A stretch of 64,000 bases of DNA, taken from IMG/VR virus record IMGVR_UViG_3300030708_002798; one strand, written 5' to 3'. The notes under the pieces were generated by a model. The model saw nothing but the letters and a program-made list of their open reading frames with translations, did not search any database and was not told the DNA's origin. The position numbers and the translations under genes are program-made. Of the stretch, positions 3,854-54,912 are shown one piece after another (the first letter of the stretch is position 1; each line of letters starts with the position of its first letter). The stretch is from a virus. Lineage: Duplodnaviria > Caudoviricetes.

Positions 3854-3860
3854 TATTTAT
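3854..3860 (-). promoter_or_regulatory. T4-type late promoter (ATAAATA) upstream of gp13
   Basis: ATAAATA on the minus strand ~20 nt before the gp13 start; matches the gp55-dependent TATAAATA consensus. Confidence 0.65.
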
Positions 3861-18400: not shown

Positions 18401-21400
18401 GTAATAGGATTGAATTTTAGAGCATTTTCGGCAGTAGTTGCAAACTGAATCTTACTATCATCTACTTTAACTGCATAAAGATCTGAAGGTAGTTTATCTG
18501 TAGATCCGACACCTGGGACAGTTGTTGTTGCAATTCCTACAGCAGAACTGTCTTCTGGGAAAGAATACTTCAGTAATTCTCCAGTAACGAAGAAATGATT
18601 TGGTAGTACAAGTACATTTTCTTCGGTAGAAACTACAGTTCCTATAGAAGTTGCATCAAAGACTCTCTGGAAAATTAGATCACCTTGGTGTCTTAGTTCA
18701 AAACTTCTCTTAACGTCATTTTCCGTACCTGTATACTCATCGTATAGGGTTACAAAACGACCACCATCATAATCTATAGAACTAGTAGAAACACCTAGAT
18801 CAACTAGACCAAATGAATTTGAGAAGACACGAATTTCGATATCTTTATTTGGAACTGGACCACTAACTGCAATAGGTTCAAAGTGAAGTTCTGCTTTCTT
18901 CGATGTTGAGTTACGATAGACATAGAATGTTCCAATTCCAGTATCTTCAATATCTTCATCATTAGAAACTCTACCAAATTCAGAAATATAACCATCAATT
19001 TCATTATGAGTGAATACCAATTCCGAGAACTGAACTACATCATTAGTTTTGTCTTCAATACTTACATAAGCATTAAATCCTTTATATCTTTCAGGGAAAT
19101 CAATGACTAAGAATGATGTAGTCGCAGAACCTACAGATGTTGAAGCAAATCCTACTGTGGTTAAAGTAGTATTGTAAGTACTGTCACCGATAGCAGTTCT
19201 GGTTGTATTGGAGATAGATACGACAGTAGAAGAAACTGTGTAATCTGTAGAGAGACCACTATTTGGAACCAGTTTCATATCAATGGTATCAGAATTATAG
19301 TCAAACTGATACGTTCCAATTCCACCAGCAACATCCGAATCATAGTTACTAGTTTCTAGAGTTGCAAATTCAGATTCGTAGATATTGATTCCATCATGAA
19401 CGATGTTAAATTCGTCCATTTGGAAATATGACTCATCTGATGCTTTAATGGTTACGATTACCTTAGAGGAAGTATATGATGAATCAATTCCGACAATTTT
19501 ATATGCAGAATTAGTATTTTCTGGAACAGTTACGGTTTGAATACCGACTGCTGCAATATCACCAACATATTGAGTAGCAATTCCACTGATAGTATCAGAA
19601 ATTGCATAAGATGTACCACTAATATTATAATCAGTGAATCTAAACTCTACAGGATAGAACAGCAGTAGACCATTTCTTTCAAATACGCCAACATCAAAGT
19701 AACCGTGAACACTGTTAGTTTCTACTCGACCATATTGGTTTAGATAACCATAGTCACCGTCAAGAACGACGTTAACGATGATCATTTGTCTTTCACCTGG
19801 GAATTTTTTATTCGAGGTGAATAGAATATATTTTTTAGATGTAAATTTGTCCAGTGAGAATGTATCTACTGTGACAAATTTAGTTGCTCTAGGATTACTA
19901 TTAAACTGGTCACTAATATCATCAACAATTAATGCTCTGTTACCAATAGATTCAAAATAATCCACCATAACAAGTGAATTAAATCTCACCTCATCAGAAA
20001 GATAGTCCTTAATATTATTTTCTGTTGCAAGATCAATATCATGAACACAATTTAGATCGTAATATGAATCAATATCAGCAATACCTAAGAATCCTGATCC
20101 AGTCTGTTCTTGAGTTAGTCCAACAGTATCCTCTGAACGTTTTTCGGCATCAGATACAACTTGTAGTTCACTAAATCTCTTCAAACCACTTGGATGTGCT
20201 AGAGATTGTACAGGTTCTCTCCAACTGCTAATTCCAACTTCTGATTTAATTGAGTATGCAAAATACTGATAATAATCACTGTCATGAAGTCTCTGAGTTT
20301 CTTCATTTAAGTAACCTCTTCTATCAAAAGGCTTATATCTTTCAGCATTTGATGCATCGACAGAATAGTTAAGTGATGTAATACCAACAACTTCGGTTAG
20401 AGATCCACTAGAACCAGAAGTTTTACCAACAATAACATCACCAATTTTATAGAGTTCTGGAGATCCTGTGAAAATCTTAAGAATTTCATTTTTAACACTC
20501 CAAGAAACTACAAGATCTTCTTGAGTTCCATTTGTAACAATCTCATTCTCAAAATACTTGTTAGCAATTCTATTAACCTTGAATGTTGGGAAATATGATT
20601 CTGGAATAACTCGACCAGAAGTGAACAGGTCATCATATACACCAGGATTGTTATCAACAACAAAATCAGTTAATTTAAACTTAAATGATGGATTTTGACC
20701 ACCAATATTTGGATCATCTTCAGTTACAACAAATAGTTTCTTATAATCATAATCTACAGAATTGTAACCCTCATCTTTTCCGTCTGGATTTTTGGTAATA
20801 ACACCTTCAACCATGAACTTCTTGCCCACTCCAAAAGGCCAGGCAGATAATGTACTAAATCCAACAACATCAAGGGTTACAGTTGCTTCTTTATCACCAC
20901 TATCATATTCTATCTTAAGAATTTTGAATCCATTGCTATTATTGACTGGTAGTAGTCTTGGTTCAACATCATATAAGTTTTTGGTATTCTTAATAATCTT
21001 GACTTTGAAAGTATCTTCTTCGACATATAGAAGTTCGGCATCGTCAGCAATTTTATTAGTATAACCATCAATTAGAACAAGATCTGGAAGAACTGTATAG
21101 TTCTTTCCGACAGTAAGTACTTCAATATTATCAACAGAAGTTAGAGGGTCAATTTTAAATACTGTTGGAGTAAATGCTCTAGGTCTTACAGTTACATCAG
21201 ATGGGAAGTCAAAACCAATATTATCGATTTCAATATCCTTTGCAATACCAATAGATTCAGATTTAGGGAATAAAATAGCATCAATACCTTCTTTTGATTG
21301 TACTGATTCGATAACAGGAATCTTAATTAAATTAGCACCCTTAGAGATGAATGATACATCATTAATTGGACCCTTAGCAGTGGTTGATATCGTAGAATAT

Positions 21401-24400
21401 GTGATATCAGCAGTGGATTCGTGAGTATATGTAGTAGTATCTACAGGATTTGCAAGTCTATAAGTAAACTTCTTGATAGAAGGAACTCTTACTTTGAAAT
21501 TGCCAGAGAAGTTGCTATCAACAAATTCAATTTGATTATCAATTTCAGCATCTAAAGAAATTAGTGAATACGCAACTGGAAGGTTTTCATTTTTGACAGG
21601 TACTAGGTTATAATATAGTTTAGAAGGAATTTTATCATCGCAAATTAATTTTACACTTGCATCAATATCTACACCAAGTTTTCCATCTTTAACTACACTG
21701 AGTTCTTTATCTTTTTGTGATGTAATAAACTCATGTCGCAATTCTTTATCATAATAAAATTTTAGATCAAATGCAGAGAATCTGATATTATTTCTGACAT
21801 ATGAAAGACTAAAGTCAGAAACATCAAAATTCAATGTTTTATTCTTAACTAAAGTCAAACTAGGATTAATTACTAAGAATCTTCCTGAAGACTGAGTTGT
21901 AATAGTTACTCTTTCTCTGTTATTCTTATCGAGAAGTTTAATTGTATCTAAATCAACAACTTCAACATAATATACTTCATTAGAAATCAAACCTCCTGGA
22001 GGTGCAACTGCTTCTAAAATCAACTTCTGGTTATTCTTAAGTCCATGAGATGATAGTTTGAATGTATTCTCAGTAAGATCAATGTCAGCATTGACAAAAT
22101 CAAACTTACCAAAAGCAAATTTTCTATTTTCTTGATTATAAAATACTGGAATTTGCTTTTCAATATTAGGAACACACTTCATATCAATAACATCATCATA
22201 TTGAAGTCCATGTGCTTCTGATGTAGTTACAGTAACATCGACCGTTGTTACATTTACATCAAGAACATCTGTTCTAACTTCTTCAAAACTATGATTGTCT
22301 CCAGAACCAAAGTTATTGAATGTTAATAGTTCAGTGACACTACCTACACCAACTGCTCCAGTTGATCCAACACCAACTTTTCTAGACGAAATGCCTACCA
22401 TTCCGTTTCTGAATGGATAAGCATAATATACTTGATCAGCAACTAATTCAAATGTATCACCAAAAGATTCGACAGAAATTGGACCACCATTATTTGTATA
22501 TTTGATTGGAGTATTAACTGCTAGATTGTTATTTGGCAGATAAATTCTATCTCCAGGAACGAATACTTGCGTATTTCCTACTCCAGGATTGTTAATGGTT
22601 AAAGTCGTTCCAATACCTACACCAACAGACTCTCTAGGATCAAAATAGAGTGTTTGATTAAATCTAGATAATCTGTTGACATCATCAAAATCTGGTTGAC
22701 AAATAAACTTTCTTGGATTTTCTGATAATGCAGTTCCTACTGCATAACTTGTACCAATAGTTCCATTTACTTCTCTTTGTACTCTTAATCTAGAATTCTC
22801 AAAATCTATGTTTAGTAGTTTTACTTCTTCTCTAAAACTACCATTTTTAATTACGAAAATGTCATCAGGTACTAATGGAATAAATGATTGCTTAGAATCT
22901 AAACCAGTAACATTAAAATATGTGACCACACCAGTTTGACTTGGTGTATCAATCGCACTAGTAATATCTAAATCACGATCATACACCGTGATATTAAGAT
23001 TATCTTCTTCTTCAGTATCGAGATTGCTAAGTTTGACAAGACCACTTTCTAAATTGTGTGGTACGGAAGCAATGCCTAGTCTTCCTCTAACTGTAAAGAA
23101 TGATGATAATTCAACATCAACAATTGTAGAAGTTGCCGCAGAAACTGTAGTTACATCAGTACCAGCAACACTTACAACTTCCCCAAGAGGTCTCTTAGTT
23201 CCAGCCCCACTATCTGCAAAAATAATTCTATCTCCGATTTGATAATTTTTACCACCAGAGAAGATTTCAATTTTATCTACTTCACCTTTAGAAACTCTAG
23301 AAATTTTTGATGAAACAGTAAATACGTCAGATGGATTGAATAAGTAACTATATTCACCATAAGGTGTTTCTGTATTATATGGAGTTACGTTTCTGTATAA
23401 TTTGTAATCTCTATAATTTTCTGATGTAAATTCACCCGTTTCTCCTTCTTCAACTTCTTCAAAGAAAGATATTTGATTAATGAATGGATCAAAGTTAAAA
23501 TCAATTGGTTTTGACTTATACGAATCACCAATTACATATGGAAATGCTGGTACTTTAAAGTTTTGGAAAGCAGAGTCATTGTTGCCAATAGTTGTAAAAT
23601 ATGCATACACCCCATTTGGATACTCTGGAGTAATGCAATATCTTCCATTATGAATATCTAAATGCCCATCACTAAACCACTCATAATCATTTACGAAGAA
23701 ACCTAGGGGATAAACACTGAGAGGTGGTCTGTTGGGAAGAGTTCTCTTTTTATAACCACTAACCATTCTCTTAATACCACCAGTTCCATCAATATTGCTG
23801 AATCCGTATGGACCGTAAATTGGATTTCCATCATATGCATATCCCAGAATTGGTGAGTGGAAAGATGAATCTTTCTCTCTTCCTAAAGTATCAAATTGAA
23901 GATCTGGATTAAAGGTTGCTCTTCCATTAACAACTCTCTTATTGTATAGTGATTGCCTTAGTTTTCTTGGAGCATAGCAATGAGTATACTGAAGAAGACC
24001 ATTTTCCTCTGCATAAAACTCTGGAGTTGCAGAATCTTGATAGATAAATCCATCATCATTATAAATTTGATTGCTGTTTAATGCTCTCTCAACAACATTT
24101 ACATTCCAAGAATCAATTTTTGCATTAAATTTAGCATTTTTACCAGCAGAAACAATGATAATTTCTGTAGATTCGTTGTAATCAGCACCTTTATCTCTAA
24201 CGATGATATCAGAAAGTCTACCGTTAGTAATAACAGGTTCTAAAACTGCACCAAATCCACTTTTTCCGTCAGTTAAAATTTCAATATCGGGTGTAGAAAC
24301 ATATTTTTGACCAGAATTTTGAATAATTACATTTTCAATTTTACCATTAACGATAAATGGTTTAGCAGTTGCAAGTTTTCCTGGTTCTGCATTGATATTT

Positions 24401-27400
24401 GGTTGTCTCTCGTAATTGAAAATATCAGTACAACCATATCCAACACCCTTGTTTTCTAGGAAAACTTCCTTAATCTCACCTCTAGCAATTGTAACTACTT
24501 CAGGATCAATCACATAAGGATCCTTAATTGCCTTATCAACTGTAACCTTAATGGTTGGATATCTAAAGAACTGTTTTCCAACACCAGATGTTGTTAAATC
24601 TTTATATCTCTTATTTTCATAATAGAATTCTTCAGAAATAGTTCCAATTCCAACTTCAGAAAGTTTAAACTTATCATCAGTTACCTTCGTCACATAATAC
24701 TTTGTATTGCTGGTTAGACCAGTAATTTCTGTAGTTGAAGAATCATAAACGACAATTTCACCACTCTTGAAACCATGATTGATTATGTTAATTTCATTAG
24801 TGTAAAAATCAACTGGGTTTGCATCAAGTGCTGTATCGTATGAAACTTTACGATGAGTATAATCGTCTGCAGAGTAAGTTACTCTAATATCATTGAGTCT
24901 TTTCTTTTTCTGAATAGCAGTAATTAAATGGTCACCAACACCAACACTCGTAAAATTAATTGGATTCTGACCATTTAGAGCATCACTTTCGGACAAGTGT
25001 AGTTGAAACTCCGTATCAGTTAATTTTCTTACATAATATACGGATTTTGTCTTTAGTCCACCAATTTCAGTATATGCTTGAGTATCGTAAAGTACTTTTT
25101 CACCAGTCGAAAAATAGTGTTTAGCAGTATAAGTGATTGTATTTGCTGATGTATCTACGATATCAGTATCACTTGCATTTATCTTAATAAAATGAGTATA
25201 CGTTTCCATAATAGGAATCGCATTACAACCACTACCATTACCACCTGTAACTGTAATCTTAGGATCTGTGATGTAATTAAATCCACCATTAACAACTCTA
25301 ACATCCTCAATAGAACCAGTTATAACAAAATTACCAGCACAACCAGATCCATCAGAATCATCAACTTCTAAAGTTGGTGGATTTATAAGGTCGTATCCTT
25401 CACCACCAGAAAGAACATCTATTCTATTGATAGAACCGTAGTAAATACTATCTTTTGACTTGTAAGATTGAATTTCTACACCATTACGAAGAATGCCAAT
25501 AGTTCCAGAAACTGTACTTACGGGTTCAATCTGATCAATTGGTGGTGAAATTTTCTTTACTAATCTCTTTGAATTTAATTCAAATGCGTTTTCTAAGGTT
25601 AGTGATCTTTCAATATCAGGAAAATCTGAATAGAAGAATGTATTATCTGTAACTGTTCCTTCAATTGTAATATAATCTTTAGTAAATACTCTATTAAGAC
25701 TTGTAGATAGTTTAATCGTCTTATCATCTACTACAGTGACATAATATCTTCCATTCGGAATACTAAGTCTATTATCTTCATCTTCTTCTCTATAAATGAT
25801 TGAATCACCATTGTAGAAAGAGTGAACTACTTCAGGATTAGTAGGTGTACCATCCTGTCCAACTTTAATTTCTTTATTGTTAGCATCTTGGGGTAGAGAA
25901 ACTGAAAAAGTAATTCTCTTATCGTTAACATTAATCTGTTCGTTATAATAACTTGGAAGACCAGATGATGTAATAAAAATATCTTGATTTAAATTTTCTC
26001 TTCTGTAAATATTTTGTACGTCAGTAATATAGTTTGATGCTTCTGGGAAAAACTTAAAGTTTGCTTTATTTAATTTTCTCTCAATTTTAAATGTACGAAG
26101 ACCACCCTCTTTGATTAGAACATTTGACGTAAAAATGTATTCAGTTGCACTATTTCTAGTTGAAATGATAATGTCATATGTTTCACCTAATGATGAAATA
26201 AGAGTATAATTATCCTTTGAGTTTAAATCAAAGTCGGTTTGAACTTCAAAATGATACTGCCTATTATTTGCACTTAGTAAAACTAAATTTTCAATATTAT
26301 AACAAGCCGTCGTATTAAAAGACCACCTGTTAAATCTGGAATCACCTTCTAACAAACCTAGAGTATCTAGTTTGATGGGGTCATTCTCAGAAAAATATGA
26401 ATCTTCTCCAGGTGTAATTCCTGACAATACAGACGTAATTCTAAAATAAAGTGTTTCGTCTTCTAACTCAATATAACCATATCTCTTAGATGAAATTAAA
26501 GTTCCTTTAGGAATTTCAAATTCTGCATCAACATCTTCAAACTCATTGACAGTTTTACTATCATATGAAGCAGTTTTAACAATTCCATTATCTAGATATG
26601 CATCAAATTCATCACTCGAATAAAAAGAGAGTGTAGAGTCGGTATATAAAAACTCTGGATATTCTCCAGTTGCAGGGTCTTTTTTGTAATCTTCTACAAC
26701 TCTAGTAGTGGGAGTTGGAACAAATGTTCCAAAGACTGTTCCAGATACACTGATATCTTTATCATAATCACTGTCTAGGCTGACAAGATAATAAAATACA
26801 CTACCTCTTTCAATCCTTTCAACATTTGTTATTGTACCGTATGCTGTAACATCTTCACCATCAGTAACTGTACTATCTTTCTCGTTCTGCTTTAAGGTTC
26901 TATGAAGGATTATATCAGTGTAATCTGTTTTTTGATCGGAAATATAGAGAACTAAATCTCTAGTTTTTCTATTTGATGATGCCGAAGCTTCAAATACAAA
27001 TTGAGAAGGACGAATTACTTCTACATCCTTTCCATAAAGTGCTTTGAAAAGAATCTTAAATCCTTCATCAGTGCCTTTTGATTTGTAGAAATCACTAGAT
27101 TGCTTAAAGAATAACCTAGATTTTACATTTTCGTTTAATTTTCTACGTTCAAAACCAGGTGCAATTTGAGTTTTTAATTTTTCTAAAAACTCAGTTAAAA
27201 ATAATACACTGAGATTATTTACACTTTGACCAGAAAAATACCGATTGATTTGAGAATCTGAAAAAACCATCTCGTCACCGAGACTGGTCATTCCACTAAA
27301 CCCTCTAACACAATCTACAAATTCTGTATCAGTCTTTGATTTGTAGATAATAATTTCACCATCAATCTCAAGTAAACCGAAGGCATTAGGAAATCCTGCA

Positions 27401-27654
27401 GTAGACTCTACTGTAATAGTAGTAGTATCGTAATCTACATCTTCCGTTAAACTAGTCTCACTATTCTGCAGTAAAAGAGTATCAAGTTTTACGTATTGGT
27501 CAATATTTGATAAGAGATCTGAAGGACCACCAGGAATTTCATTAGACTCCTGATATGTTCTTAGAAATTCTCTAAACAGTGGGAATTCGTCGTTAATGAA
27601 ATCTGGAACTTGATTTTCCAGTACTTGAGACAGATTGACTCTATTATTGACCAT
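15406..27654 (-). CDS. gp7: Giant baseplate wedge initiator (gp7-like), 4082 aa
   Basis: Located between gp6 and gp8; QVPDFINDEFPLFREFL..Y, FYKSKGT, YHYH-like HSPILGYAYDGNPIYGPYG, DSDYYQYFAYSIKS..HPSG motifs; many GxGY repeats. Confidence 0.75.
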   Translation of the reverse strand: MVNNRVNLSQVLENQVPDFINDEFPLFREFLRTYQESNEIPGGPSDLLSNIDQYVKLDTLLLQNSETSLTEDVDYDTTTITVESTAGFPNAFGLLEIDGEIIIYKSKTDTEFVDCVRGFSGMTSLGDEMVFSDSQINRYFSGQSVNNLSVLFLTEFLEKLKTQIAPGFERRKLNENVKSRLFFKQSSDFYKSKGTDEGFKILFKALYGKDVEVIRPSQFVFEASASSNRKTRDLVLYISDQKTDYTDIILHRTLKQNEKDSTVTDGEDVTAYGTITNVERIERGSVFYYLVSLDSDYDKDISVSGTVFGTFVPTPTTRVVEDYKKDPATGEYPEFLYTDSTLSFYSSDEFDAYLDNGIVKTASYDSKTVNEFEDVDAEFEIPKGTLISSKRYGYIELEDETLYFRITSVLSGITPGEDSYFSENDPIKLDTLGLLEGDSRFNRWSFNTTACYNIENLVLLSANNRQYHFEVQTDFDLNSKDNYTLISSLGETYDIIISTRNSATEYIFTSNVLIKEGGLRTFKIERKLNKANFKFFPEASNYITDVQNIYRRENLNQDIFITSSGLPSYYNEQINVNDKRITFSVSLPQDANNKEIKVGQDGTPTNPEVVHSFYNGDSIIYREEDEDNRLSIPNGRYYVTVVDDKTIKLSTSLNRVFTKDYITIEGTVTDNTFFYSDFPDIERSLTLENAFELNSKRLVKKISPPIDQIEPVSTVSGTIGILRNGVEIQSYKSKDSIYYGSINRIDVLSGGEGYDLINPPTLEVDDSDGSGCAGNFVITGSIEDVRVVNGGFNYITDPKITVTGGNGSGCNAIPIMETYTHFIKINASDTDIVDTSANTITYTAKHYFSTGEKVLYDTQAYTEIGGLKTKSVYYVRKLTDTEFQLHLSESDALNGQNPINFTSVGVGDHLITAIQKKKRLNDIRVTYSADDYTHRKVSYDTALDANPVDFYTNEINIINHGFKSGEIVVYDSSTTEITGLTSNTKYYVTKVTDDKFKLSEVGIGTISEEFYYENKRYKDLTTSGVGKQFFRYPTIKVTVDKAIKDPYVIDPEVVTIARGEIKEVFLENKGVGYGCTDIFNYERQPNINAEPGKLATAKPFIVNGKIENVIIQNSGQKYVSTPDIEILTDGKSGFGAVLEPVITNGRLSDIIVRDKGADYNESTEIIIVSAGKNAKFNAKIDSWNVNVVERALNSNQIYNDDGFIYQDSATPEFYAEENGLLQYTHCYAPRKLRQSLYNKRVVNGRATFNPDLQFDTLGREKDSSFHSPILGYAYDGNPIYGPYGFSNIDGTGGIKRMVSGYKKRTLPNRPPLSVYPLGFFVNDYEWFSDGHLDIHNGRYCITPEYPNGVYAYFTTIGNNDSAFQNFKVPAFPYVIGDSYKSKPIDFNFDPFINQISFFEEVEEGETGEFTSENYRDYKLYRNVTPYNTETPYGEYSYLFNPSDVFTVSSKISRVSKGEVDKIEIFSGGKNYQIGDRIIFADSGAGTKRPLGEVVSVAGTDVTTVSAATSTIVDVELSSFFTVRGRLGIASVPHNLESGLVKLSNLDTEEEDNLNITVYDRDLDITSAIDTPSQTGVVTYFNVTGLDSKQSFIPLVPDDIFVIKNGSFREEVKLLNIDFENSRLRVQREVNGTIGTSYAVGTALSENPRKFICQPDFDDVNRLSRFNQTLYFDPRESVGVGIGTTLTINNPGVGNTQVFVPGDRIYLPNNNLAVNTPIKYTNNGGPISVESFGDTFELVADQVYYAYPFRNGMVGISSRKVGVGSTGAVGVGSVTELLTFNNFGSGDNHSFEEVRTDVLDVNVTTVDVTVTTSEAHGLQYDDVIDMKCVPNIEKQIPVFYNQENRKFAFGKFDFVNADIDLTENTFKLSSHGLKNNQKLILEAVAPPGGLISNEVYYVEVVDLDTIKLLDKNNRERVTITTQSSGRFLVINPSLTLVKNKTLNFDVSDFSLSYVRNNIRFSAFDLKFYYDKELRHEFITSQKDKELSVVKDGKLGVDIDASVKLICDDKIPSKLYYNLVPVKNENLPVAYSLISLDAEIDNQIEFVDSNFSGNFKVRVPSIKKFTYRLANPVDTTTYTHESTADITYSTISTTAKGPINDVSFISKGANLIKIPVIESVQSKEGIDAILFPKSESIGIAKDIEIDNIGFDFPSDVTVRPRAFTPTVFKIDPLTSVDNIEVLTVGKNYTVLPDLVLIDGYTNKIADDAELLYVEEDTFKVKIIKNTKNLYDVEPRLLPVNNSNGFKILKIEYDSGDKEATVTLDVVGFSTLSAWPFGVGKKFMVEGVITKNPDGKDEGYNSVDYDYKKLFVVTEDDPNIGGQNPSFKFKLTDFVVDNNPGVYDDLFTSGRVIPESYFPTFKVNRIANKYFENEIVTNGTQEDLVVSWSVKNEILKIFTGSPELYKIGDVIVGKTSGSSGSLTEVVGITSLNYSVDASNAERYKPFDRRGYLNEETQRLHDSDYYQYFAYSIKSEVGISSWREPVQSLAHPSGLKRFSELQVVSDAEKRSEDTVGLTQEQTGSGFLGIADIDSYYDLNCVHDIDLATENNIKDYLSDEVRFNSLVMVDYFESIGNRALIVDDISDQFNSNPRATKFVTVDTFSLDKFTSKKYILFTSNKKFPGERQMIIVNVVLDGDYGYLNQYGRVETNSVHGYFDVGVFERNGLLLFYPVEFRFTDYNISGTSYAISDTISGIATQYVGDIAAVGIQTVTVPENTNSAYKIVGIDSSYTSSKVIVTIKASDESYFQMDEFNIVHDGINIYESEFATLETSNYDSDVAGGIGTYQFDYNSDTIDMKLVPNSGLSTDYTVSSTVVSISNTTRTAIGDSTYNTTLTTVGFASTSVGSATTSFLVIDFPERYKGFNAYVSIEDKTNDVVQFSELVFTHNEIDGYISEFGRVSNDEDIEDTGIGTFYVYRNSTSKKAELHFEPIAVSGPVPNKDIEIRVFSNSFGLVDLGVSTSSIDYDGGRFVTLYDEYTGTENDVKRSFELRHQGDLIFQRVFDATSIGTVVSTEENVLVLPNHFFVTGELLKYSFPEDSSAVGIATTTVPGVGSTDKLPSDLYAVKVDDSKIQFATTAENALKFNPITLTLDAAGIGTQHKITATNKDTKGIYTIDNMVQSPLVDLDIVTTLSEDVALTDTLINTVGIVSFFSGDIVRVNDEVMLIENLGIGTQDKMRVRRPWLGTELGIHTTGDTMTKLKGNYQIVGSTINFTSPPFGKVPVTQLENQFGVPFVDPSDRDYTGITTNSFFHGRTFMRTSEVDETAETYTKNYRFDDLSTRFTGIRSSFELTVGGGTSVAGISTDNAIILVKDIFQQPKRIGINSIIGNYEFEEVNNGTKILFEPTTLTPGEDVNSSNLPVGGVIVSVGSTSGLGYQPCVAAGATATVSGLGSITAISIGNSGSGYRPGIQTHIGVFAVTSTAITKVGYATALNGHITGVAITNPGTAYTTTSLPEIKIDAPLGYTNVPLIYSDDSVQGIGTKASLDMFISRDTTMGEFKFNNNGYAYGQGEKLTVAIGGSTGIPTDTSKTFEELQITVNKTHTDEFDAWSIGQLQQLDSLDDRFDGVRRVFPLSFQGERLSIRARPGSNINVAATLLIFINDVLQIPDQAYTVKGGSLVIFAEPVPKEYTSRVIFYRGTRDVDVEEVDIVEPIEIGDKVKLMSDVPSQTQSKRTVEDILSSDILLTNPYTGIGRLNDETIERPVMACKQTEDIFINGSYVGKDRNLYEPDIFPHTNLIQPVGVDTTIAWVENVSTFFDNENENIIEKKLGQIQIISQEETAPAFGTPVVSASGTITSITISNAGAGYTGNPQIAIGAPGAGGTTAIATCTISNGSVDSITITNAGSGYTSTQKPMIIIEEPKPRIEPIRLVEYDGDFGTIVSVANTVVGVGSTALKLSLYVPHDSYLRNIGVKNVGFVTTGISGIITDHYFTMSNTNIGSGVTSLASDGSGNSIGYSTVRMDNVYQAYDIERTTESVAGIGNTDILVVTTLVAEPITLSQESNTFDNGLETFDDSFTTFDSEGGDNDYFGNFSWGRISWHPTKSRRSPLVFDSYHENGYVGVTTSPFIRRTFPLRTKLYTQYTD

Positions 27655-47158: not shown

Positions 47159-48634
47159 TTATACTACCCAGGTAATCATACTGTATCTAGTTCCATCTGT
47201 AACAGGAAGAATTTCATGAGGATACATGAAATTAGATGGGAAGACTAAAACATCACCAACATCTAGTTCATGAACTAGTTCTCTTTGGAACATAGCAACT
47301 TCACCACCTTCATAAGCATTATTCATCGCGATGATGATAGTCAGTGCTCTAGGTTGCTCCTTAAATGAATCTGTATGCTCAATATAGAAGTCACCAACTT
47401 CATAACGTAGAAGTTCATATCCACTATCTTCACTAATTTCTAGTTCAAACTCAGGATGTTCTTTTACATATTCGTCAATAATATCTTTGACGATCTTGAA
47501 CATTTTATTATCAATTTCTCTACGGTAATCATTATTTTCATTGATACACCGTTGATCTGAGATAGTAATTACCTGACACTTTCTTGCTTCTTCATCAAGA
47601 CCAGATCCAGTAAATGTTTTCTCCCACAGTTCAGATCTTGCATACTCTTCCAGAATCTCATCACAAAAATCTGGATCAACAAACTCTTCTTTGACCATAA
47701 TAAAGTCTTTTAGAGACTTCTGTGACAAAGAACCAGTTTTTTCTTTTGCTTTATCTGATTCAACAGGTTTTGCATTTGATTTCTCTAGAAGAGAATTATA
47801 TTTCTTGTTAAAGATAACAGCATCATCTAAATCATAAAACTCTTCTTCATCATCTCTAGTCATAAATCCAGCACCATTATCACTTTCAAAATTGATAAAG
47901 TTTGTGCCAGTCTTTTCCTCAACGATGGTGAAATCATCTACATCATCTGCTTTTTTAATAGCATCATCAACTTGCTCTTCTACTTGTTCTCGCATCCAAC
48001 GTGGGAGAATAGTTTTTTCACTCATATCTTCAAAATTGATTCGTCTCATTTCATCATACTCCTTTTTGAGTTGTGGTATGTCATCTTCAAGATCTTTTAT
48101 TTTATCGAAAACTGCTTCACCATTCATACCACGACTTCTGACATAATGCAAGAAGAATTGGGTATAATTAGTTCCTTCAAAAGTATCCCTCCAATGTGGA
48201 GCAATACAACCTAAGTACATCATTGCATCACCAGGGTTAAGATTAACACATCTATCTTTTCCCTCGGATGTTGTAATCCAAATTGCCCATGGTTTATCAC
48301 CACCCAAATGTAAGGTCATTGAGATCTCACATGCTGGACGATCTGTATGCTTAATTAACTCATCACCCTTACGATAAATTCTAGAATAAACATATGTTGG
48401 TAATACTGTCTCTCCTACAATTTTACTTACTTCTGGTGTTTTATTAGCAAGTAATTCTAATGCGGGCAAATAGTTATATACTGATGAAGAATGAGGTGCC
48501 TGAGGATCCCCAGGAAACTCATACATTTCATCAGTAATATGAAACTCTCGTTCTAACCTTTTTGCTTCTTTAGGATCGATAAAATTAGGAATAACAAGAT
48601 AATGATTCTTTAGTAGTTCACCATTCACAATCAA
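47159..48634 (-). CDS. Tandem two-domain 2OG-Fe(II) oxygenase
   Basis: Domain 1: RIYRKGDELIKHTDRPACEISMTLHL...GDAMMYLG..APHWR. Acidic linker. Domain 2: LLRYEVGDFYIEHTD...YEGGE...FPSNFMYPHEILPVTDGTRYS. Confidence 0.85.
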   Translation of the reverse strand: MIVNGELLKNHYLVIPNFIDPKEAKRLEREFHITDEMYEFPGDPQAPHSSSVYNYLPALELLANKTPEVSKIVGETVLPTYVYSRIYRKGDELIKHTDRPACEISMTLHLGGDKPWAIWITTSEGKDRCVNLNPGDAMMYLGCIAPHWRDTFEGTNYTQFFLHYVRSRGMNGEAVFDKIKDLEDDIPQLKKEYDEMRRINFEDMSEKTILPRWMREQVEEQVDDAIKKADDVDDFTIVEEKTGTNFINFESDNGAGFMTRDDEEEFYDLDDAVIFNKKYNSLLEKSNAKPVESDKAKEKTGSLSQKSLKDFIMVKEEFVDPDFCDEILEEYARSELWEKTFTGSGLDEEARKCQVITISDQRCINENNDYRREIDNKMFKIVKDIIDEYVKEHPEFELEISEDSGYELLRYEVGDFYIEHTDSFKEQPRALTIIIAMNNAYEGGEVAMFQRELVHELDVGDVLVFPSNFMYPHEILPVTDGTRYSMITWVV

Positions 48635-48645
48635 TCACCTCTCAT

Positions 48646-49992
48646 TCACTTTTCCTTATCCAAGACTTCTTTAAGTGCAGCAAACCATTGAACTGCTTTA
48701 TCTACTGGGAATTGATTTTCTTCTCTTTCATCATCTGTCAGAGTAGTATAGAACTTCTCAGGATCAATATCAGTCATCATTTGAACAATATCATTGATAC
48801 TATGCTCAGTTTTAGATGTTTGTCTTTGATTAAAGAACTCAATGTCATCAACAGCCTGCTCGATAGAATCAGTTCTTATTTCAAGATCTTCCATCTTAGA
48901 TTGCTGCATTTGCCTATACTCTTCTTCAAAGATTTCAAGATTATCAGGTAGCATGAAGTCTGCTTCATCTTGAATATCTTTATCAAGTTCAGCAGCAACT
49001 AAATCTTGCTCAAGTGATTCTCTTGCTCTAGCAATTTCGTCAAGTTCTTGTTGCTTAATCAACTCAAACTCTTCACGTTCTGCCTCAAGTCTTGCCATGG
49101 TAGTATCACGTTCTTGACGGATTTCTGCAAGATCAAACTCCATCTCTTCAACAGTTGCTTCAAGATTTCTTGTTTGAATCTCCATCTCAAGACGAGTCTG
49201 TTGAATACTCTCTTTCTCAAGATCTTCCCATGCTTCAGCAACACGACGTGCTTCTTCACGTTCTTCATCTTCACGTTGAATCTGTGCCTGAACAGCATCA
49301 TATTCTGCTGAAATCTGATCTCTTTCTTTCTGTAGAAGTTCATTATACATCTTGCGTTCTTCCATGAACGCTTCCTTTTCCTTCTCAAATTCTAATAGAA
49401 GATCATCAAACTTCTTCTGCATATCCTTATTGATCTTTTGGATATACTCCTCAACCTTCATTACTTTAGCAGCAGTAAGTTCTTCCTCATACTCTAGTTG
49501 TTTACGTCTTTGTTCGATCTCTGAGGTTCTTTCTTGGAAATTTCGTTGCTCTAGTGCAGCAGCAAGTTCATCATTTAGAATATCATTCTGATCACGAATT
49601 TCTCTATTCTGCCTTTGAAGATCTTCAATGAAAGCAATCTGTGCTTCTTGTTCTACTTTATCAGCAACGAGTTCTTCTTGCTCTGATGCAATTCTTTCTT
49701 CTTCTTCGATTGCTTCTTCTAGTTGCTTTTGCTCAAAAGCAGTTAGAAACTCAGCATAAAAATCTAAGTAAGGTTGAACAATAGTATTGAATTCGTCTTC
49801 TCCGAAGATCTTATTGGGAACTGGTTTCTCACCAATTACATCTTCATACTCAAGTTCACCACGTCCATCTCTCCATTGAATAGCATGGATGTGACTGTCA
49901 TCAAATTCCCACCGAATATCATCATCATCGAGATCTACAGTTCTCTTATCAACAATAATTCGTTTGTCTTCTGGAATAATAGTTACTCTCAT
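48646..49992 (-). CDS. Putative fibre-assembly chaperone with long acidic coiled-coil extension
   Basis: N-terminal MRVTIIPEDK...IHAIQWRDGRGELEY domain followed by ~300 aa of Glu/Asp/Gln-rich helical sequence. Confidence 0.6.
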   Translation of the reverse strand: MRVTIIPEDKRIIVDKRTVDLDDDDIRWEFDDSHIHAIQWRDGRGELEYEDVIGEKPVPNKIFGEDEFNTIVQPYLDFYAEFLTAFEQKQLEEAIEEEERIASEQEELVADKVEQEAQIAFIEDLQRQNREIRDQNDILNDELAAALEQRNFQERTSEIEQRRKQLEYEEELTAAKVMKVEEYIQKINKDMQKKFDDLLLEFEKEKEAFMEERKMYNELLQKERDQISAEYDAVQAQIQREDEEREEARRVAEAWEDLEKESIQQTRLEMEIQTRNLEATVEEMEFDLAEIRQERDTTMARLEAEREEFELIKQQELDEIARARESLEQDLVAAELDKDIQDEADFMLPDNLEIFEEEYRQMQQSKMEDLEIRTDSIEQAVDDIEFFNQRQTSKTEHSINDIVQMMTDIDPEKFYTTLTDDEREENQFPVDKAVQWFAALKEVLDKEK

Positions 49993-50375
49993 TGTTGCTC
50001 CTCTTCAGACTTGGGTAGTAAATTTTCTTCTTCATTATCTATGCCTTCTAGAGGTTCAAAATACTCATCAACGTTGACACCTTGCGACTCACACATATCC
50101 AAATACATGTTACCAACTGCTTCTAACATATCTTGATTAGAAGTATGTGCCTTGATCATTTCATTTCGGAATGACTCAACAGCAGAACCAGTTTGACGTT
50201 GCTGTTGACTATTTTCAATCAAAAGTGTGGGCATCCATCCAATAGAACAACCAAAATGATCAATTTCTTGACCAGTGTTGGGATCTAATCCTGCGATATG
50301 AATGTACCAAGCACACTTATGCTCAACACAATCTTTTTTAATGAGTGGACACCACTTACCAGTTGCTTTTGCCAT
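49989..50375 (-). CDS. Conserved Cys-rich protein associated with fibre-tip genes
   Basis: CPLIKKDCVEHKCAW...GLDPNTG....GC...P.LLIENSQQQRQTGSAVESFRNEM. Confidence 0.75.
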   Translation of the reverse strand: MAKATGKWCPLIKKDCVEHKCAWYIHIAGLDPNTGQEIDHFGCSIGWMPTLLIENSQQQRQTGSAVESFRNEMIKAHTSNQDMLEAVGNMYLDMCESQGVNVDEYFEPLEGIDNEEENLLPKSEEEQQ

Positions 50376-50416
50376 GAGACGAATTTCAATGATTTATTTA
50401 TTATATCAGTAGATGA

Positions 50417-51712
50417 TCAACCTGTAAACTCACACATGATAATATCAATGTATTGAATCCTAAGGTTGATTGGACTTGTAGTTGTGGAATACCCACCATC
50501 ATCTTGTAATAGATGATCATGAGATTGTCCTCCACCAATAGCAGATGATGCTGGTCCTTGAGTATTTGCACCTCTCATAGTACCACCAGGTGTCAATGTT
50601 CTCTGTGTTACCCTGACAGATGTTGTCTGTGGATAACGTTGAACAACACGATACTGACGTGGTTGTCTATAAGATGCAGTGACTCTTTGAGGTACAGCAA
50701 CTCTGAATGGAATTTGAGATCTAACATCTCTTCTCTGTCTTACAGAGTATCTTACTCTAAAGGAGAATGGTCTTCTACTTCTAAAGTCTCTCCTCTGTCT
50801 TCTAGGTTGCGGTGATCTACCACTTCTAGGTTGACGGAAAGATCTTCTCTGACGGAAAGAACGTGGTTGTCTTGCCTGTCTACGTTGTCTCCAACCTACA
50901 GGGTTTCTCCATGATCTTCTCTGTCTAAATGGGAATCTATCTCTTTGCCTTCTACGTCTTCTTCCCCATCTTCTCCTTCTTCTTCTTGGAGCTCTTCTAT
51001 CACCTCTATTACTACCTCTATTATCTCTTGGTTGTCTAAAAGGAATAGGTCTTCTCCACCTACCAATATCAGCACGGAAACTAATAGGTCTTCTAGATCT
51101 AACAGGTACTCTAAAGTTGAATGGAAGTCTTACATTAAATGGTCTTCTAGATCTTGCCTGCCTTCTTTGTCTAGCATTTCTAGGTTGTCTGACTCTAAAT
51201 GGGTTTCTAGATCTATTTGACTGACGATATGTTCGTGGTTGTCTAATTTGTCTGGGTTGTCTGAATTGAATCTGAACACGAATGTTCTGACCAACTCTTC
51301 GTGCTGCTCTAACAGCATATGATCTAGGTTGTCTATTTTCAGTACGGAATGGACTTGTACCAGCAGATGATCGAATTGTTTCTGCACTACCACCACCATG
51401 CGTATGTGATGGTAATTGTTGAACAGTTAATGTTGTTGGATCAACATTTACATCTGCAAATTCTCCTTGAGTTACATCAAATGTACCTGTAGTAGGGAAG
51501 ATACTACTAAATGTTCCATTTCCTCCAGTACCACCACCAGATCCAGTTACAACTCTCAGTGATTTATTAGTATGATCAACAACTTTTGTCCATCCGACAG
51601 GTGTTGTGTTCTGATAAAAGAACATCCTTCTATCTTCTGGAATAATACCAAATCTAGAATCTAAACTTGTATTATTACCAAAGTCAATGCCACTTGCGTT
51701 TAATCTTGACAT
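50417..51712 (-). CDS. Tail-collar/HxH fibre-tip protein with ~260-aa Arg-rich insertion
   Basis: Paralogue of 51722-52249 at both ends (RL.ASGIDF, P..WTKV..H.NK.LRVV.G, PTTLT.QQ.PSHTH ... GGGQ.H.H, LR.QYID.I.C); ~88 Arg between the HxH motifs. Confidence 0.8.
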   Translation of the reverse strand: MSRLNASGIDFGNNTSLDSRFGIIPEDRRMFFYQNTTPVGWTKVVDHTNKSLRVVTGSGGGTGGNGTFSSIFPTTGTFDVTQGEFADVNVDPTTLTVQQLPSHTHGGGSAETIRSSAGTSPFRTENRQPRSYAVRAARRVGQNIRVQIQFRQPRQIRQPRTYRQSNRSRNPFRVRQPRNARQRRQARSRRPFNVRLPFNFRVPVRSRRPISFRADIGRWRRPIPFRQPRDNRGSNRGDRRAPRRRRRRWGRRRRRQRDRFPFRQRRSWRNPVGWRQRRQARQPRSFRQRRSFRQPRSGRSPQPRRQRRDFRSRRPFSFRVRYSVRQRRDVRSQIPFRVAVPQRVTASYRQPRQYRVVQRYPQTTSVRVTQRTLTPGGTMRGANTQGPASSAIGGGQSHDHLLQDDGGYSTTTSPINLRIQYIDIIMCEFTG

Positions 51713-51721
51713 TTATCCTCC

Positions 51722-52249
51722 TCAATTAAAACTGCAAAGAATAACATCAATATATTGAACCCTAAGATCCAAACTTCCACTGTATGGTGCAGGTGAACCT
51801 GAAAATGGGTGAGTGTGACCTTGACCACCACCAGCAGGACCAGTTGCAGGTGCTTGAGTATTTACTCTTCTACCCTGAACACCAGGAGATCCTGGACTAA
51901 CTGTTACAGAAGAACCAGCATTATGTGTATGTGAAGGAATTTGTTGTGTAGTTAATGTTGTTGGACCAACAGTACCACTAGCAGTAAATGTACCACTGAA
52001 AGGTCTAGTAGTCATAATGGTTGTGAAAGGTGATCCTCCAGGACCAGCAGTTCCACCAGAACCAAAACCACCACCAGTGCCACTAACAACTCTCAGTGCT
52101 TTATTATCATGAGTAGTTACTTTAGTCCAAAAATTAGGAGCAGTTGTTTCATAAAAGACCATGACACTATTTTGAGGAATAATGTCATATCTAGAATTTA
52201 GTTCCGTACCATCACTAAAATCGATACCACTAGCATCTAACCTTGCCAT
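51722..52249 (-). CDS. Tail-collar/HxH fibre-tip protein (short paralogue)
   Basis: APNFWTKVTTHDNKALRVVSG, LTTQQIPSHTH, GGGQGHTH; late promoter ATAAATA at 52271-52277. Confidence 0.75.
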   Translation of the reverse strand: MARLDASGIDFSDGTELNSRYDIIPQNSVMVFYETTAPNFWTKVTTHDNKALRVVSGTGGGFGSGGTAGPGGSPFTTIMTTRPFSGTFTASGTVGPTTLTTQQIPSHTHNAGSSVTVSPGSPGVQGRRVNTQAPATGPAGGGQGHTHPFSGSPAPYSGSLDLRVQYIDVILCSFN

Positions 52250-52270: not shown

Positions 52271-52277
52271 TATTTAT
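52271..52277 (-). promoter_or_regulatory. T4-type late promoter (ATAAATA) for the fibre-tip operon
   Basis: ATAAATA ~21 nt upstream of the ATG at 52249. Confidence 0.65.
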
Positions 52278-52940
52278 TTATCCGATATTAAATGCAATAG
52301 ATATTCTTTCTTGCTTACTAAAATGTGGAGTTACATAATGTGCCAAACATGAAGGCATCAAATAAACAGTTCCAACTTTAGGTCGTATAGAATACTCACA
52401 GTTCTCATCAATTTCTGCATAGGCAACATTATGATTCATTGGATCTTGCCTTAAAACAGTGAAAACACCTTCGTTTTCTTTCAGATTATCAGGAACAGCA
52501 GGATAATATAGACCAATTATAGCACATCCAGGATGAGTATGATATACATTATATCCCATACCTTCATTGATATTGATCCACCAACCAATACCACCATCAT
52601 GAGGTCTCCATTCTGACCCATTTTCTTCCATCATATGTGCAGTAAGATCTACAACATTTCGTGCAAGATTCTGAATATGTGGAGTTGTATAAGGTTTGAT
52701 CTCATCAAGTTCATATGGATAACTTTGCCAACCACCTCCATGATTTGATTTTGTCACACCTCTAGGATACATTCTCCTCAAGTCATGACATTCTTCTACA
52801 ATACTTTCATTGTCAATATCTAGATCAAATTCATACAAATAAGTTGGAAATATGTTATTTGCTTCTTTATTCTTGATAGGTATTTCAGTAAAAAAGTTAT
52901 CACCGAAGTTACCATGATCTACTAACTTGTGTTCAGTCAT
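52278..52940 (-). CDS. 2OG-Fe(II) oxygenase (TIGR02466-like)
   Basis: SNHGGGWQS, WWININ..GYNVYHTHPG, MPSCLAHYVTP...ERISIAFN. Confidence 0.85.
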   Translation of the reverse strand: MTEHKLVDHGNFGDNFFTEIPIKNKEANNIFPTYLYEFDLDIDNESIVEECHDLRRMYPRGVTKSNHGGGWQSYPYELDEIKPYTTPHIQNLARNVVDLTAHMMEENGSEWRPHDGGIGWWININEGMGYNVYHTHPGCAIIGLYYPAVPDNLKENEGVFTVLRQDPMNHNVAYAEIDENCEYSIRPKVGTVYLMPSCLAHYVTPHFSKQERISIAFNIG

Positions 52941-53682
52941 CGTCTTCGCAATCTGGATTTACAAAAAAGAATACTTGATTGATTCTATATTCAGCATTAC
53001 TCCAATGCTCCGCAAAATAATTCTCACCAGTTAAGTTCATGCTATGGTAGTAGAAACTTCCTTCAAACATAACAAATCGATTAAATTTTGATCGGAATGA
53101 TGCAAAAATATCCCAATATCTTTTAGGAGTCCATGGAATACCATGCTCATCTCTTACACCACCATTCTCATCTAATGGCAAAATATCAGGATTGTCTGTG
53201 ATAAGTGGTTTATATAGATTCGTTCCAATTTCTTCATTCTTAGTAAGATAGCAAATACCATTATATCCACTATCATGATGTGGCCACCAATAATGTGTTT
53301 TATATGGATTTGTTTCTTGATCTTCAGAGAATCTAGTATAATTTGTGACAATATCATTATCTGTCGGTTCTTGTCCGCACAGATCTGCTAACTTATCTGT
53401 AACATCTTCCATGCCAGGATGTGACATCATATGTCTACGATCTTCAAAATATAATGTATTTTTTGAAGTCTTTCCTGGATCCCATTCAGGTCCAAACTTC
53501 CAAAGTGGTGGAGTAAATGAATTGATATATTCAAACACATCATCAGGATGTTTATAGAAATTGTCCATCCAATATAGATTTGATACTTTATCCCCGTCAT
53601 AAATTGGGATGACTTTCATGTTTGAAAAATCATTAGTTTCAAACAATTCATGTTCAGTTCTTGGGGTAGATTTCAATTTCAT
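52933..53682 (-). CDS. 2OG-Fe(II) oxygenase-like (DUF6445-like)
   Basis: MDNFYKHPD, WPHHD.GYNGICYL..GTNLY, FNRFVMF...YHSM...RINQVFF. Confidence 0.75.
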   Translation of the reverse strand: MKLKSTPRTEHELFETNDFSNMKVIPIYDGDKVSNLYWMDNFYKHPDDVFEYINSFTPPLWKFGPEWDPGKTSKNTLYFEDRRHMMSHPGMEDVTDKLADLCGQEPTDNDIVTNYTRFSEDQETNPYKTHYWWPHHDSGYNGICYLTKNEEIGTNLYKPLITDNPDILPLDENGGVRDEHGIPWTPKRYWDIFASFRSKFNRFVMFEGSFYYHSMNLTGENYFAEHWSNAEYRINQVFFFVNPDCEDDD

Positions 53683-54254
53683 AAAAACATTTCCTCTATT
53701 TTCTTATTGTCAAGGCAGAAACCAAATACCCACAAAATTCTTGGAGTATTGCCATATGTTGGAGTAACTTCATGATGAACTTCAGATACTTGATAAATCA
53801 AAAGATCTGTAGGATTTATATCATTATATTTTACACCACCAATAACAGTATGTCCACCCCTATCTGCCTGCTGCGTAATGGCATTGAAGTGAACAGTTTT
53901 TGTATTGGGATAGTATGTAGGATCAATATGATTATCTATTCTTCCACCATTATATCCAATTCCATTTACAATACCTTGACTGTATGATGGAGGATGATTG
54001 TAATCTTCTAAGTGAAAGTAATTGACAATTCTTTGTCTGACAATTTGTGCAGCATTAGGATAATCTATATGAGGAGCAACTGATTCGTTTGGAAATCGAG
54101 TTGTAAATCTAGTACCAGGATTATCTGGATCCATATTAGCATCCTCAAAGAAATCTCGATGACAATTATCGAGAGTCCATTTGTTTAGTTTATTAACATC
54201 TTTCTCAAACAAAAAATTTCTAAGAACAAGAACCTTAGACATCATTTGTTGCAT
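53679..54254 (-). CDS. 2OG-Fe(II) oxygenase-like protein
   Basis: NHIDP...GGHT...SEVHHEVTP..G..PRILWVFGF. Confidence 0.75.
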   Translation of the reverse strand: MQQMMSKVLVLRNFLFEKDVNKLNKWTLDNCHRDFFEDANMDPDNPGTRFTTRFPNESVAPHIDYPNAAQIVRQRIVNYFHLEDYNHPPSYSQGIVNGIGYNGGRIDNHIDPTYYPNTKTVHFNAITQQADRGGHTVIGGVKYNDINPTDLLIYQVSEVHHEVTPTYGNTPRILWVFGFCLDNKKIEEMFL

Positions 54255-54912
54255 ACTCAGAGTATTCTGCGTCTATACTATTTTCTTCTTCAAAATTCAT
54301 AGCACCATATTCTGCTGCCATATTAAATGACAAAATCACTCGATCAACATTACTGGTATTTGGTGCAGTATAATGCAGAACATATGATGGGAAGATGATT
54401 AGTGATCCTTCTCTGATTCCAGGTGGAACAAAATTTGTAACCTGATCATCCGCAACATTAGGATTCATGAATACTGTGGGTGTATGATACTTGGGATCAA
54501 ACTGAATGAAACATACAGCACTGAAACCTTCTACACCATGATTATGAACAGAGTGCTGCTTTCCCTTTTTTGCTTTCTCAAACCATGTAGTAGAAACTTC
54601 AATGGCACATTCAAAAGTATCAGATAAAGTCTCTAGTTCTTCTCTAAAAATATCAGTGATTACATCACTATAATCAATATCATTGTCATAGTTGTAATGA
54701 TAATCAGTCTCTACATCATGACTCTCTTCTTTTCCACATGCAATCTTAAATTTATCACGTTGTTCTTTTCTGCTCTCATACATCAGAACAAGTTGTCGTT
54801 TTTTCTTTTCCCAATTATTCACTTTTAAGTGAAAAAGTGGAGTAGAAAACATTGGGATAAGATAGTCTTCACTACCTTCTGGTGGATCAACGTAAAGATC
54901 AAAGGTTGACAT
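54235..54912 (-). CDS. 2OG-Fe(II) oxygenase (TIGR02466-like)
   Basis: PMFSTP, WFE...QHSVHNHG..FSAVCFI, EGSLIIFPSYVLHYT...RVILSFN. Confidence 0.85.
   Translation of the reverse strand: MSTFDLYVDPPEGSEDYLIPMFSTPLFHLKVNNWEKKKRQLVLMYESRKEQRDKFKIACGKEESHDVETDYHYNYDNDIDYSDVITDIFREELETLSDTFECAIEVSTTWFEKAKKGKQHSVHNHGVEGFSAVCFIQFDPKYHTPTVFMNPNVADDQVTNFVPPGIREGSLIIFPSYVLHYTAPNTSNVDRVILSFNMAAEYGAMNFEEENSIDAEYSEYATNDV

Follow-up and report, generated by a model that had tools for sequence, protein, structure and literature searches.

Why should a phage that encodes a compact, putative fibre-tip protein also encode, directly beside it, a longer paralogue whose two halves are separated by an insert that is 30% arginine and free of lysine? 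The question is raised by two adjacent open reading frames (ORFs) in the IMG/VR record IMGVR_UViG_3300030708_002798 (Duplodnaviria; Caudoviricetes), analysed here as one stretch of 64,000 nucleotides (nt), the window. The longer protein is best explained as a duplicate of a small fibre-tip protein of the gp12/gp10/gp37 type, and the best-supported reading of its insert is a structured, arginine-coated beta-hairpin extension of the tip with a fast-evolving apex. The two genes and the parts of the longer one are as follows; lengths are in amino acids (aa), and HxH denotes a His-x-His motif.

51722–52249, minus strand: short fibre-tip paralogue P0002, an ORF of 175 aa with two HxH motifs and 35 residues between them
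50417–51712, minus strand: long paralogue P0001, an ORF of 431 aa with the Arg-rich insert
51374–51712, minus strand: long protein, N-terminal part of the tip domain, residues 1–113, with the first HxH motif at 51398–51406
51053–51361, minus strand: long protein, insert arm 1, residues 118–220, with hexapeptide repeats
50891–51052, minus strand: long protein, variable centre or apex, residues 221–274, fast-evolving and length-variable
50948–50986, minus strand: poly-Arg/WG core, residues 243–255, within the variable centre of the long protein
50579–50890, minus strand: long protein, insert arm 2, residues 275–378, a modelled strand of fixed length
50417–50578, minus strand: long protein, C-terminal part of the tip domain, residues 379–431, with the second HxH motif at 50513–50521

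A preliminary description of this DNA, made without database searches, had proposed that the 431- and 175-aa proteins are paralogous at both termini, and BLASTP bears this out. Residues 1–113 of the long protein align with the short paralogue at 46% identity (E 1e-26) and residues 368–429 at 42% identity, and the N-terminal 25 residues of the two proteins are almost identical. The HxH motifs fall at residues 103–105 and 398–400 of the long protein and at residues 107–109 and 145–147 of the short one, for which a sequence search found 960 relatives.

Further copies of the tip gene were seen among the loci that we surveyed with hidden Markov models (80 from IMG/VR and six further ones). Two short tips, of 176 and 179 aa, precede the long tip in the Arg-rich locus L003:5912-6991, and tandem sets of three or four short tips occur in loci L020, L074 and L081. 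The tip gene therefore appears to duplicate readily.

A profile of the short family matched PDB chain 9qgo_A (E 2e-8, residues 7–163 against 244–420) and also 9nxk_A, the tail fibre of Pseudomonas phage Pa223 (E 3.6e-4), and the long-family profile likewise matched 9qgo_A (E 4.9e-7), with both halves and their HxH segments aligned. Entry 9QGO is the Photorhabdus PVC fibre Pvc13, and the matched region is its C-terminal part; according to the authors of the structure, this part shares homology with the domains by which short tail fibres of phages bind the host. The histidines of both motifs are invariant, both in 34 long members (H103, H105, H398 and H400) and in 72 short members (H107, H109, H145 and H147). 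A monomer model of the short protein, with a predicted local distance difference test score (pLDDT) of 68, gave weak fold matches in VIA-align against 48,161 chains (Z 2.0–3.4). All nine matches with Z≥2 are fibre or baseplate proteins, T4 gp37, gp12 and gp11 among them. Foldseek returned no PDB match for the short model at E≤0.001, and the long model had no VIA-align match with Z≥2. Neither paralogue matched a Pfam model at E≤1, the Collar (PF07484) and Gp10_C (PF21939) models included, and PHROGs gave a single weak match ('tail protein', E 0.007), while neighbours in the ESM Atlas belong to tail-fibre, Gp10_C and Collar clusters. For Synechococcus phage S-SCSM1, an isolate with the orthologous genes, the published paper reports HHpred matches to T4 gp12 (99.2%), gp10 and gp37. 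In agreement with the fibre-tip identity first suggested, we treat the end domain, on the strength of these matches, as a divergent member of the gp12/gp10/gp37-type HxH fibre tips.

The arginine-rich insert

Between its HxH motifs the long protein has 292 residues, which include 89 arginines, 6 aspartates and 2 glutamates but 0 lysines and 0 histidines. The earlier hand count (about 88 Arg, no Lys and about 7 acidic residues) was close, and its repeat counts were exact, RQPR occurring eight times, RQRR six times and RSRR three times. There are 27 prolines, many of them within RQPR. The core, RRRRRRWGRRRRR, occupies residues 243–255 and includes W249, which had been placed almost exactly midway between the HxH motifs; the midpoint is residue 251. 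In 23 other ORFs of the window the ratio K/(K+R) is 0.54, and the probability of finding 0 lysines among 89 basic residues is approximately 1e-30. None of this composition is chance.

An open frame of 261 codons has a probability of approximately 2e-8 at the local base composition, and the five other frames contain 4–38 stops. Arginine codons are chosen in the long gene (AGA, 76%) as they are elsewhere in the genome. No long DNA repeat array was found in the gene by Tandem Repeats Finder, whose only detections were a 27-nt array with a period of 9 and, below the poly-Arg core, a degenerate 3-nt CTT run; the insert is therefore neither a recent repeat expansion nor an assembly artefact. The long gene is genuine.

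The insert is also conserved. A search of 5.8 billion proteins yielded 34 metagenomic clusters of 412–498 aa and 33–93% identity, all of which retain the insert in frame, as does ORF245 of S-SCSM1. Within the insert, the 34-member alignment has approximately 20 invariant Arg columns as well as several invariant columns of Pro or aromatic residues, and the number of lysines per insert is 0–1 across the whole family. Arm 1 is 115–116 aa long in 31 of the 34 homologues and arm 2 is 123 aa long in 33 of them; the centre varies from 39 to 109 aa, and indels are confined to it. Loss or frameshift of the insert and asymmetric arms in relatives had been named as outcomes that would count against a stalk; instead, the insert is kept and the arms stay symmetric. 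A codon-level comparison gave ratios of nonsynonymous to synonymous substitution (dN/dS) of 0.18–0.40 for the arms, where constraint is no weaker than in the terminal domains, and 0.41–0.85 for the centre (residues 216–280). By this measure the arms are under purifying selection, and the scarcity of lysine across the family points to strong selection for arginine over lysine. When the insert alone was searched against 1.84 billion representatives, just seven proteins were recovered, all of 411–441 aa with the insert at the same position, and the module thus occurs in no other protein context.

Two divergent long tips of 514–515 aa (L017:6556-8100 and L018:6553-8100) have arms that are rich in Gln, Asn and Pro and built of YQQP-type hexapeptide repeats, with an Arg density that climbs towards a central core of the type RRRGRRGGRRR. 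These proteins suggest that the repeats arose first, as a scaffold, and the extreme arginine content later.

Along the insert, the autocorrelation of arginine peaks at lags 6, 12, 18 and 24, and hydrophobic residues recur with period 2. In both arms conserved hydrophobic residues occupy even positions and invariant arginines odd positions; this period-2 alternation, with equal parity in the two arms, is the signature of amphipathic beta strands. A collagen-like or polyproline II triple helix was considered as well and rejected, since glycine shows no periodicity and the periods are carried by arginine (6) and the hydrophobic residues (2). With the 34-sequence alignment as input, AlphaFold2 predicts strands at residues 154–215 and 281–342, each of 62 residues (block-mean pLDDT approximately 56–80), flanked by shorter strands. 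If these equal strands pair end to end, their spans (rather than contacts in the model) would imply the register i+j = 496, with residues of equal parity opposed, and would therefore place the turn at residue 248, on the W249–G250 pair in the middle of the poly-Arg core. At the insert site the short paralogue has a mini-hairpin of approximately 35 residues with a Ser-Pro-Gly-Ser-Pro-Gly turn, and the insert can therefore be viewed as the extension of an existing hairpin.

The preliminary description had envisaged an out-and-back stalk of 45–50 nm. The alternation of residues, the AlphaFold2 hairpin and the restriction of indels to the centre fit such a needle topology, which is plausible, but the length holds only as an upper bound, as the modelled strand covers approximately 62–84 residues per arm. 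The modelled strands measure approximately 20 nm, and both arms fully extended would reach approximately 48 nm. The central Arg peak is largely conserved in the family: on a relative scale from one HxH motif to the other, the Arg-densest window of 28 out of 37 members falls at 0.45–0.55.

Expression signals and neighbouring genes

Two signals bear on the expression of the tip genes.

51717–51723, minus strand: Shine-Dalgarno sequence GAGGAGG of the long gene, overlapping the TGA stop of the short gene
52271–52281, minus strand: two overlapping ATAAATA late-promoter-like motifs, 28–32 nt ahead of the ATG of the short gene

The GAGGAGG lies 4 nt ahead of the ATG of the long gene. In the window ATAAATA occurs 12 times on the coding strand (minus-strand positions 3860, 12363, 13795, 15402, 27928, 34737, 50401, 52277, 52281, 58394, 61578 and 63511) and 0 times on the opposite strand. 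Seven of the 12 copies are found 24–32 nt before gene starts and cover six genes, mostly large ones (genes of 280, 522, 520, 557 and 564 aa are included), and the large genes behind the motif are presumably structural. Late promoters of T4-like cyanophages have the form NATAAATA, and ATAAATA looks like the late-promoter motif of this phage. With this motif ahead of the short gene, and the ribosome-binding site of the long gene overlapping its end, the two paralogues look like one late transcription unit.

Two giant minus-strand ORFs, at 4445–12196 (2583 aa) and 15406–27654 (4082 aa), share the strand of the other large genes and lie approximately 170 nt (one) and approximately 270 nt (the other) downstream of an ATAAATA. 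They probably encode giant structural or fibre proteins.

The genes that flank the tip pair are listed here.

49989–50375, minus strand: Cys-rich partner protein, 128 aa, with 81 matches in approximately 85 loci
48646–49992, minus strand: acidic helical protein, 448 aa, net charge −72, found without exception in complete Arg-rich loci
47159–48634, minus strand: 2-oxoglutarate (2OG)-Fe(II) oxygenase, 491 aa, with PF13640 at its C-terminal end
52278–54912, minus strand: four upstream genes, two of which match PF13759; all four S-SCSM1 orthologues are annotated as 2OG-Fe(II) oxygenases

The order tip, tip, Cys-rich protein, acidic helical protein and PF13640 2OG oxygenase is conserved, and this module is newly recognised here. 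The Cys-rich protein (85–133 aa) stands beside nearly every tip-domain gene, on myovirus and podovirus contigs, and also accompanies tips that end fibres of 260–820 aa and the fibre genes of phage isolates. Its invariant positions are C9, P10, L11, C16, C21 and C43 together with an ESFRNE motif, and it is a candidate fibre chaperone or accessory subunit. Searches of Pfam, PHROG and PDB gave no match for either the Cys-rich or the acidic protein; the fibre-tip module that these two partners outline is a wider one, and it is common in ocean viromes.

A near-consensus sigma-70-type promoter is predicted at 50400–50428 on the minus strand (TTTACA and TATAAT separated by 17 nt, 11 of 12 matches, with a TG extension). 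This promoter shares sequence with the end of the Arg-rich gene and with an ATAAATA and sits just upstream of the Cys-rich gene; the Cys-rich and acidic genes may therefore form a transcription unit apart from the tips.

Besides a conserved N-terminal domain, the acidic protein has a helical middle region of 280 aa, in which there is one proline and no glycine. Its length steps with that of the insert: inserts of 34–47 aa occur with acidic proteins of 85–320 aa (two 573-aa fusion forms aside), those of 284–296 aa with 436–451 aa, and those of 353–363 aa with 481–488 aa (Spearman 0.80, n = 42, over loci that are not independent). The net charges of tip and acidic protein are +75/−72 in the window and +65/−62 and +69/−64 in two other loci. 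In the fusion forms (L041:4047-5768 and L046), the acidic protein reaches 573 aa through an additional C-terminal domain of approximately 270 aa that is not helical.

The PF13640 oxygenase follows the acidic gene in Arg-rich and short-only loci alike, and its nearest solved relatives are, weakly, prolyl-hydroxylase-like (4iw3_A, E 0.0018). Of the two genes directly upstream of the tips (52278–53682), the first is a PF13759 2OG oxygenase. Homologues of both lie upstream in each of the 13 Arg-rich loci whose upstream flank is long enough, against 0 of 22 short-only loci. The pair is kept even in clades at 31–39% identity.

A proposed stalk and its alternatives

The explanation that best accounts for the locus as a whole is that the long protein is a tip duplicate of an S-SCSM1-like, T4-type cyanomyovirus in which an arginine-coated hairpin stalk contacts an anionic host polymer; taken in its entirety, we consider this account evenly poised between right and wrong. 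The hairpin between the two axial HxH (metal-site) motifs would have expanded into two arms of approximately 115–123 residues made of hexapeptide repeats. The arms would pair as a long antiparallel beta ribbon with one face rich in Phe, Tyr, Val and Ile and the other lined with arginine, and the ribbon would end in the fast-evolving poly-Arg/Gly apex. Three ribbons could associate, or a single ribbon could join the short paralogue in a mixed trimer; with the hydrophobic faces buried, the resulting stalk of 20–48 nm would project distally. During adsorption the exposed guanidinium surface and the apex would contact an anionic polymer of the host surface, and the co-inherited acidic helical protein might neutralise or template the stalk during assembly. 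We infer projection from the virion and contact with an anionic host polymer because of the topology, the late-promoter-like motif and the strong selection for arginine over lysine. A role as an adhesin or in membrane penetration, as first put forward, is speculative.

Several observations weigh against this explanation. The models of the long protein are of low confidence (mean pLDDT 46 with AlphaFold2; 0.37 for the ESM Atlas model), and confident modelling is lacking for the central 65 residues and both terminal domains. A homotrimer would bear approximately 240 positive charges, which need counter-ions or a partner. Acidic partners with charges of −46 to −67 also occur with neutral short tips, and charge matching is therefore not specific to the Arg-rich form; the co-variation of lengths is based on only about three to four independent clades. 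An insert without histidine has no internal metal ladder of the kind found in the gp37 needle: with 0 His among the 292 residues between the basal HxH motifs, the insert is not a gp37-type metal-lined needle. Finally, the GenBank record of S-SCSM1 notes ORF244 as 'virion protein', whereas ORF245 and ORF247 carry no such note, although ORF245 would yield very few usable tryptic peptides.

In an unlikely alternative, the insert is no free-standing rigid needle but one half of a pair, matched in charge and length, with the acidic helical protein. The two would form a lasting composite fibre (a cationic beta core within an anionic helical sheath), or else the acidic protein would serve as a ruler or scaffold, and the arginine surface would then be masked in the virion. 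The acidic gene lies two genes downstream of the long tip in every complete Arg-rich locus, the charges nearly cancel in the three loci given above, and the acidic protein follows the insert through three size classes. As a helix, its 280-aa middle region would measure approximately 42 nm, comparable to a hairpin of up to approximately 48 nm. Charge complementarity was nevertheless rejected as proof of pairing, as equally acidic homologues accompany the uncharged short tips, and the match is poor in L004 (+61/−39), L014 (+44/−30) and L018 (+41/−33). The phylogenetic non-independence of the loci, the promoter that the Cys-rich and acidic genes appear to have of their own and the absence of a virion-protein note for ORF247 also speak against a composite. 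It is similarly conceivable, and similarly unlikely, that the Arg stalk and the acidic protein, matched in length and roughly in charge, form a new two-component host-contact device, in which an anionic sheath or ruler would hold a cationic needle neutral until the cell surface is met, and whose Arg or Pro residues the lineage-specific 2OG oxygenases may hydroxylate.

We consider it improbable that the insert is no structural projection but a flexible, mostly disordered polycation that would act inside the cell, like a protamine or as an effector, by binding nucleic acid, polyphosphate or some other polyanion. An arginine content of 30% without lysine does resemble protamines and Arg-rich RNA-binding peptides, the predicted confidence is low over most of the chain, and the lack of a virion-protein note for ORF245 would be in keeping with an intracellular role. 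However, conservation falls on particular positions and not just on composition: at 33–50% identity, many Arg, Pro and aromatic columns stay invariant. The period-2 hydrophobic residues, the fixed arm lengths and an arm dN/dS as low as that of the folded end domains also argue against a disordered chain. Moreover, both ends of the insert are embedded in a fibre-tip domain, the long gene is apparently co-transcribed behind the late-promoter-like motif, and the insert-only search retrieved fibre-tip proteins and no DNA-packaging homologue.

To the same degree improbable is the proposal that the neighbouring 2OG-Fe(II) oxygenases hydroxylate Pro or Arg within the Arg/Pro repeats, by analogy with prolyl hydroxylation in collagen-like repeats, and that the mature fibre would thus carry post-translational modifications. 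The association of the first two upstream genes with Arg-rich loci, the most divergent ones included, speaks for it, as do an oxygenase with weakly prolyl-hydroxylase-like relatives closing the module everywhere and the many prolines within RQPR. The co-occurrence may, however, reflect the shared ancestry of a single phage lineage. Furthermore, 24 2OG oxygenases are scattered through the S-SCSM1 genome, the downstream oxygenase also stands beside short tips without repeats, and substrate specificity is not readable from the sequences.

The last alternative would make the long ORF an error of annotation or reading frame, or else a duplicate in decay. Nothing but the unusual composition speaks for it, and it was rejected as having next to no chance of being correct, given the open frame, the strong ribosome-binding site, purifying selection and an in-frame insert in at least 34 clusters and an isolated phage.

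Comparison with known systems

The tip of the T4 gp37 needle (PDB 2XGF), reportedly described by Bartual et al. in 2010, is said to be a trimer in which the chain runs out and back and HxH motifs hold axial metal. The gp37 needle, a weak fold match here (Z 2.9), is lined with seven HxH/iron sites and shows no enrichment in arginine. In contrast, the long tip has only two HxH motifs, both at the base, and a His-free stalk for which a hydrophobic core and an arginine surface are proposed. The domains of T4 gp12, gp10 and gp11 and of Pvc13 (1OCY, 5IV5, 1EL6, 9QGO and 8ON5) are linked to the tips by profile homology to 9QGO and by weak fold matches (Z 2.2–3.4). Those domains end long fibres or baseplate proteins, whereas here the domain is almost the whole protein, preceded by about 20 residues. 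None of those domains has a long insert between the HxH segments, which in 9QGO are approximately 40 residues apart. Protamines, HIV Tat and other Arg-rich peptides share the extreme preference for arginine over lysine and the poly-Arg runs. However, they show no homology and are short and disordered, whereas the insert is positionally conserved, of an amphipathic beta type and anchored in a fibre domain. A full-text search of the literature found no paper on arginine-rich cyanophage tail fibres, and we know of no described phage fibre that combines an Arg hairpin stalk with an acidic partner.

Receptor-binding tips set the host range of phages, and adsorption of marine cyanophages is poorly understood. 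A conserved, folded stalk that is Lys-free and 30% arginine would be an unusual design, with dense arrays of like-charged arginines on a beta scaffold, and could point to a purely electrostatic first contact on anionic cyanobacterial surfaces.

The closest isolate is S-SCSM1, in which ORF244 (178 aa) to ORF247 have the same gene order and flanking oxygenases as the window. Its ORF245 (QFG06509, 'short tail fiber protein', 421 aa) is 55% identical to the long protein over the full length and has the same insert, with a shorter core, PRRRGGRRRR. In the available text of the S-SCSM1 paper the HHpred match to gp12 is the sole basis for the name of ORF245, and that text makes no mention of arginine or of an insert. 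Since S-SCSM1 infects Synechococcus WH 7803 and has the orthologous module, direct testing is possible in this phage.

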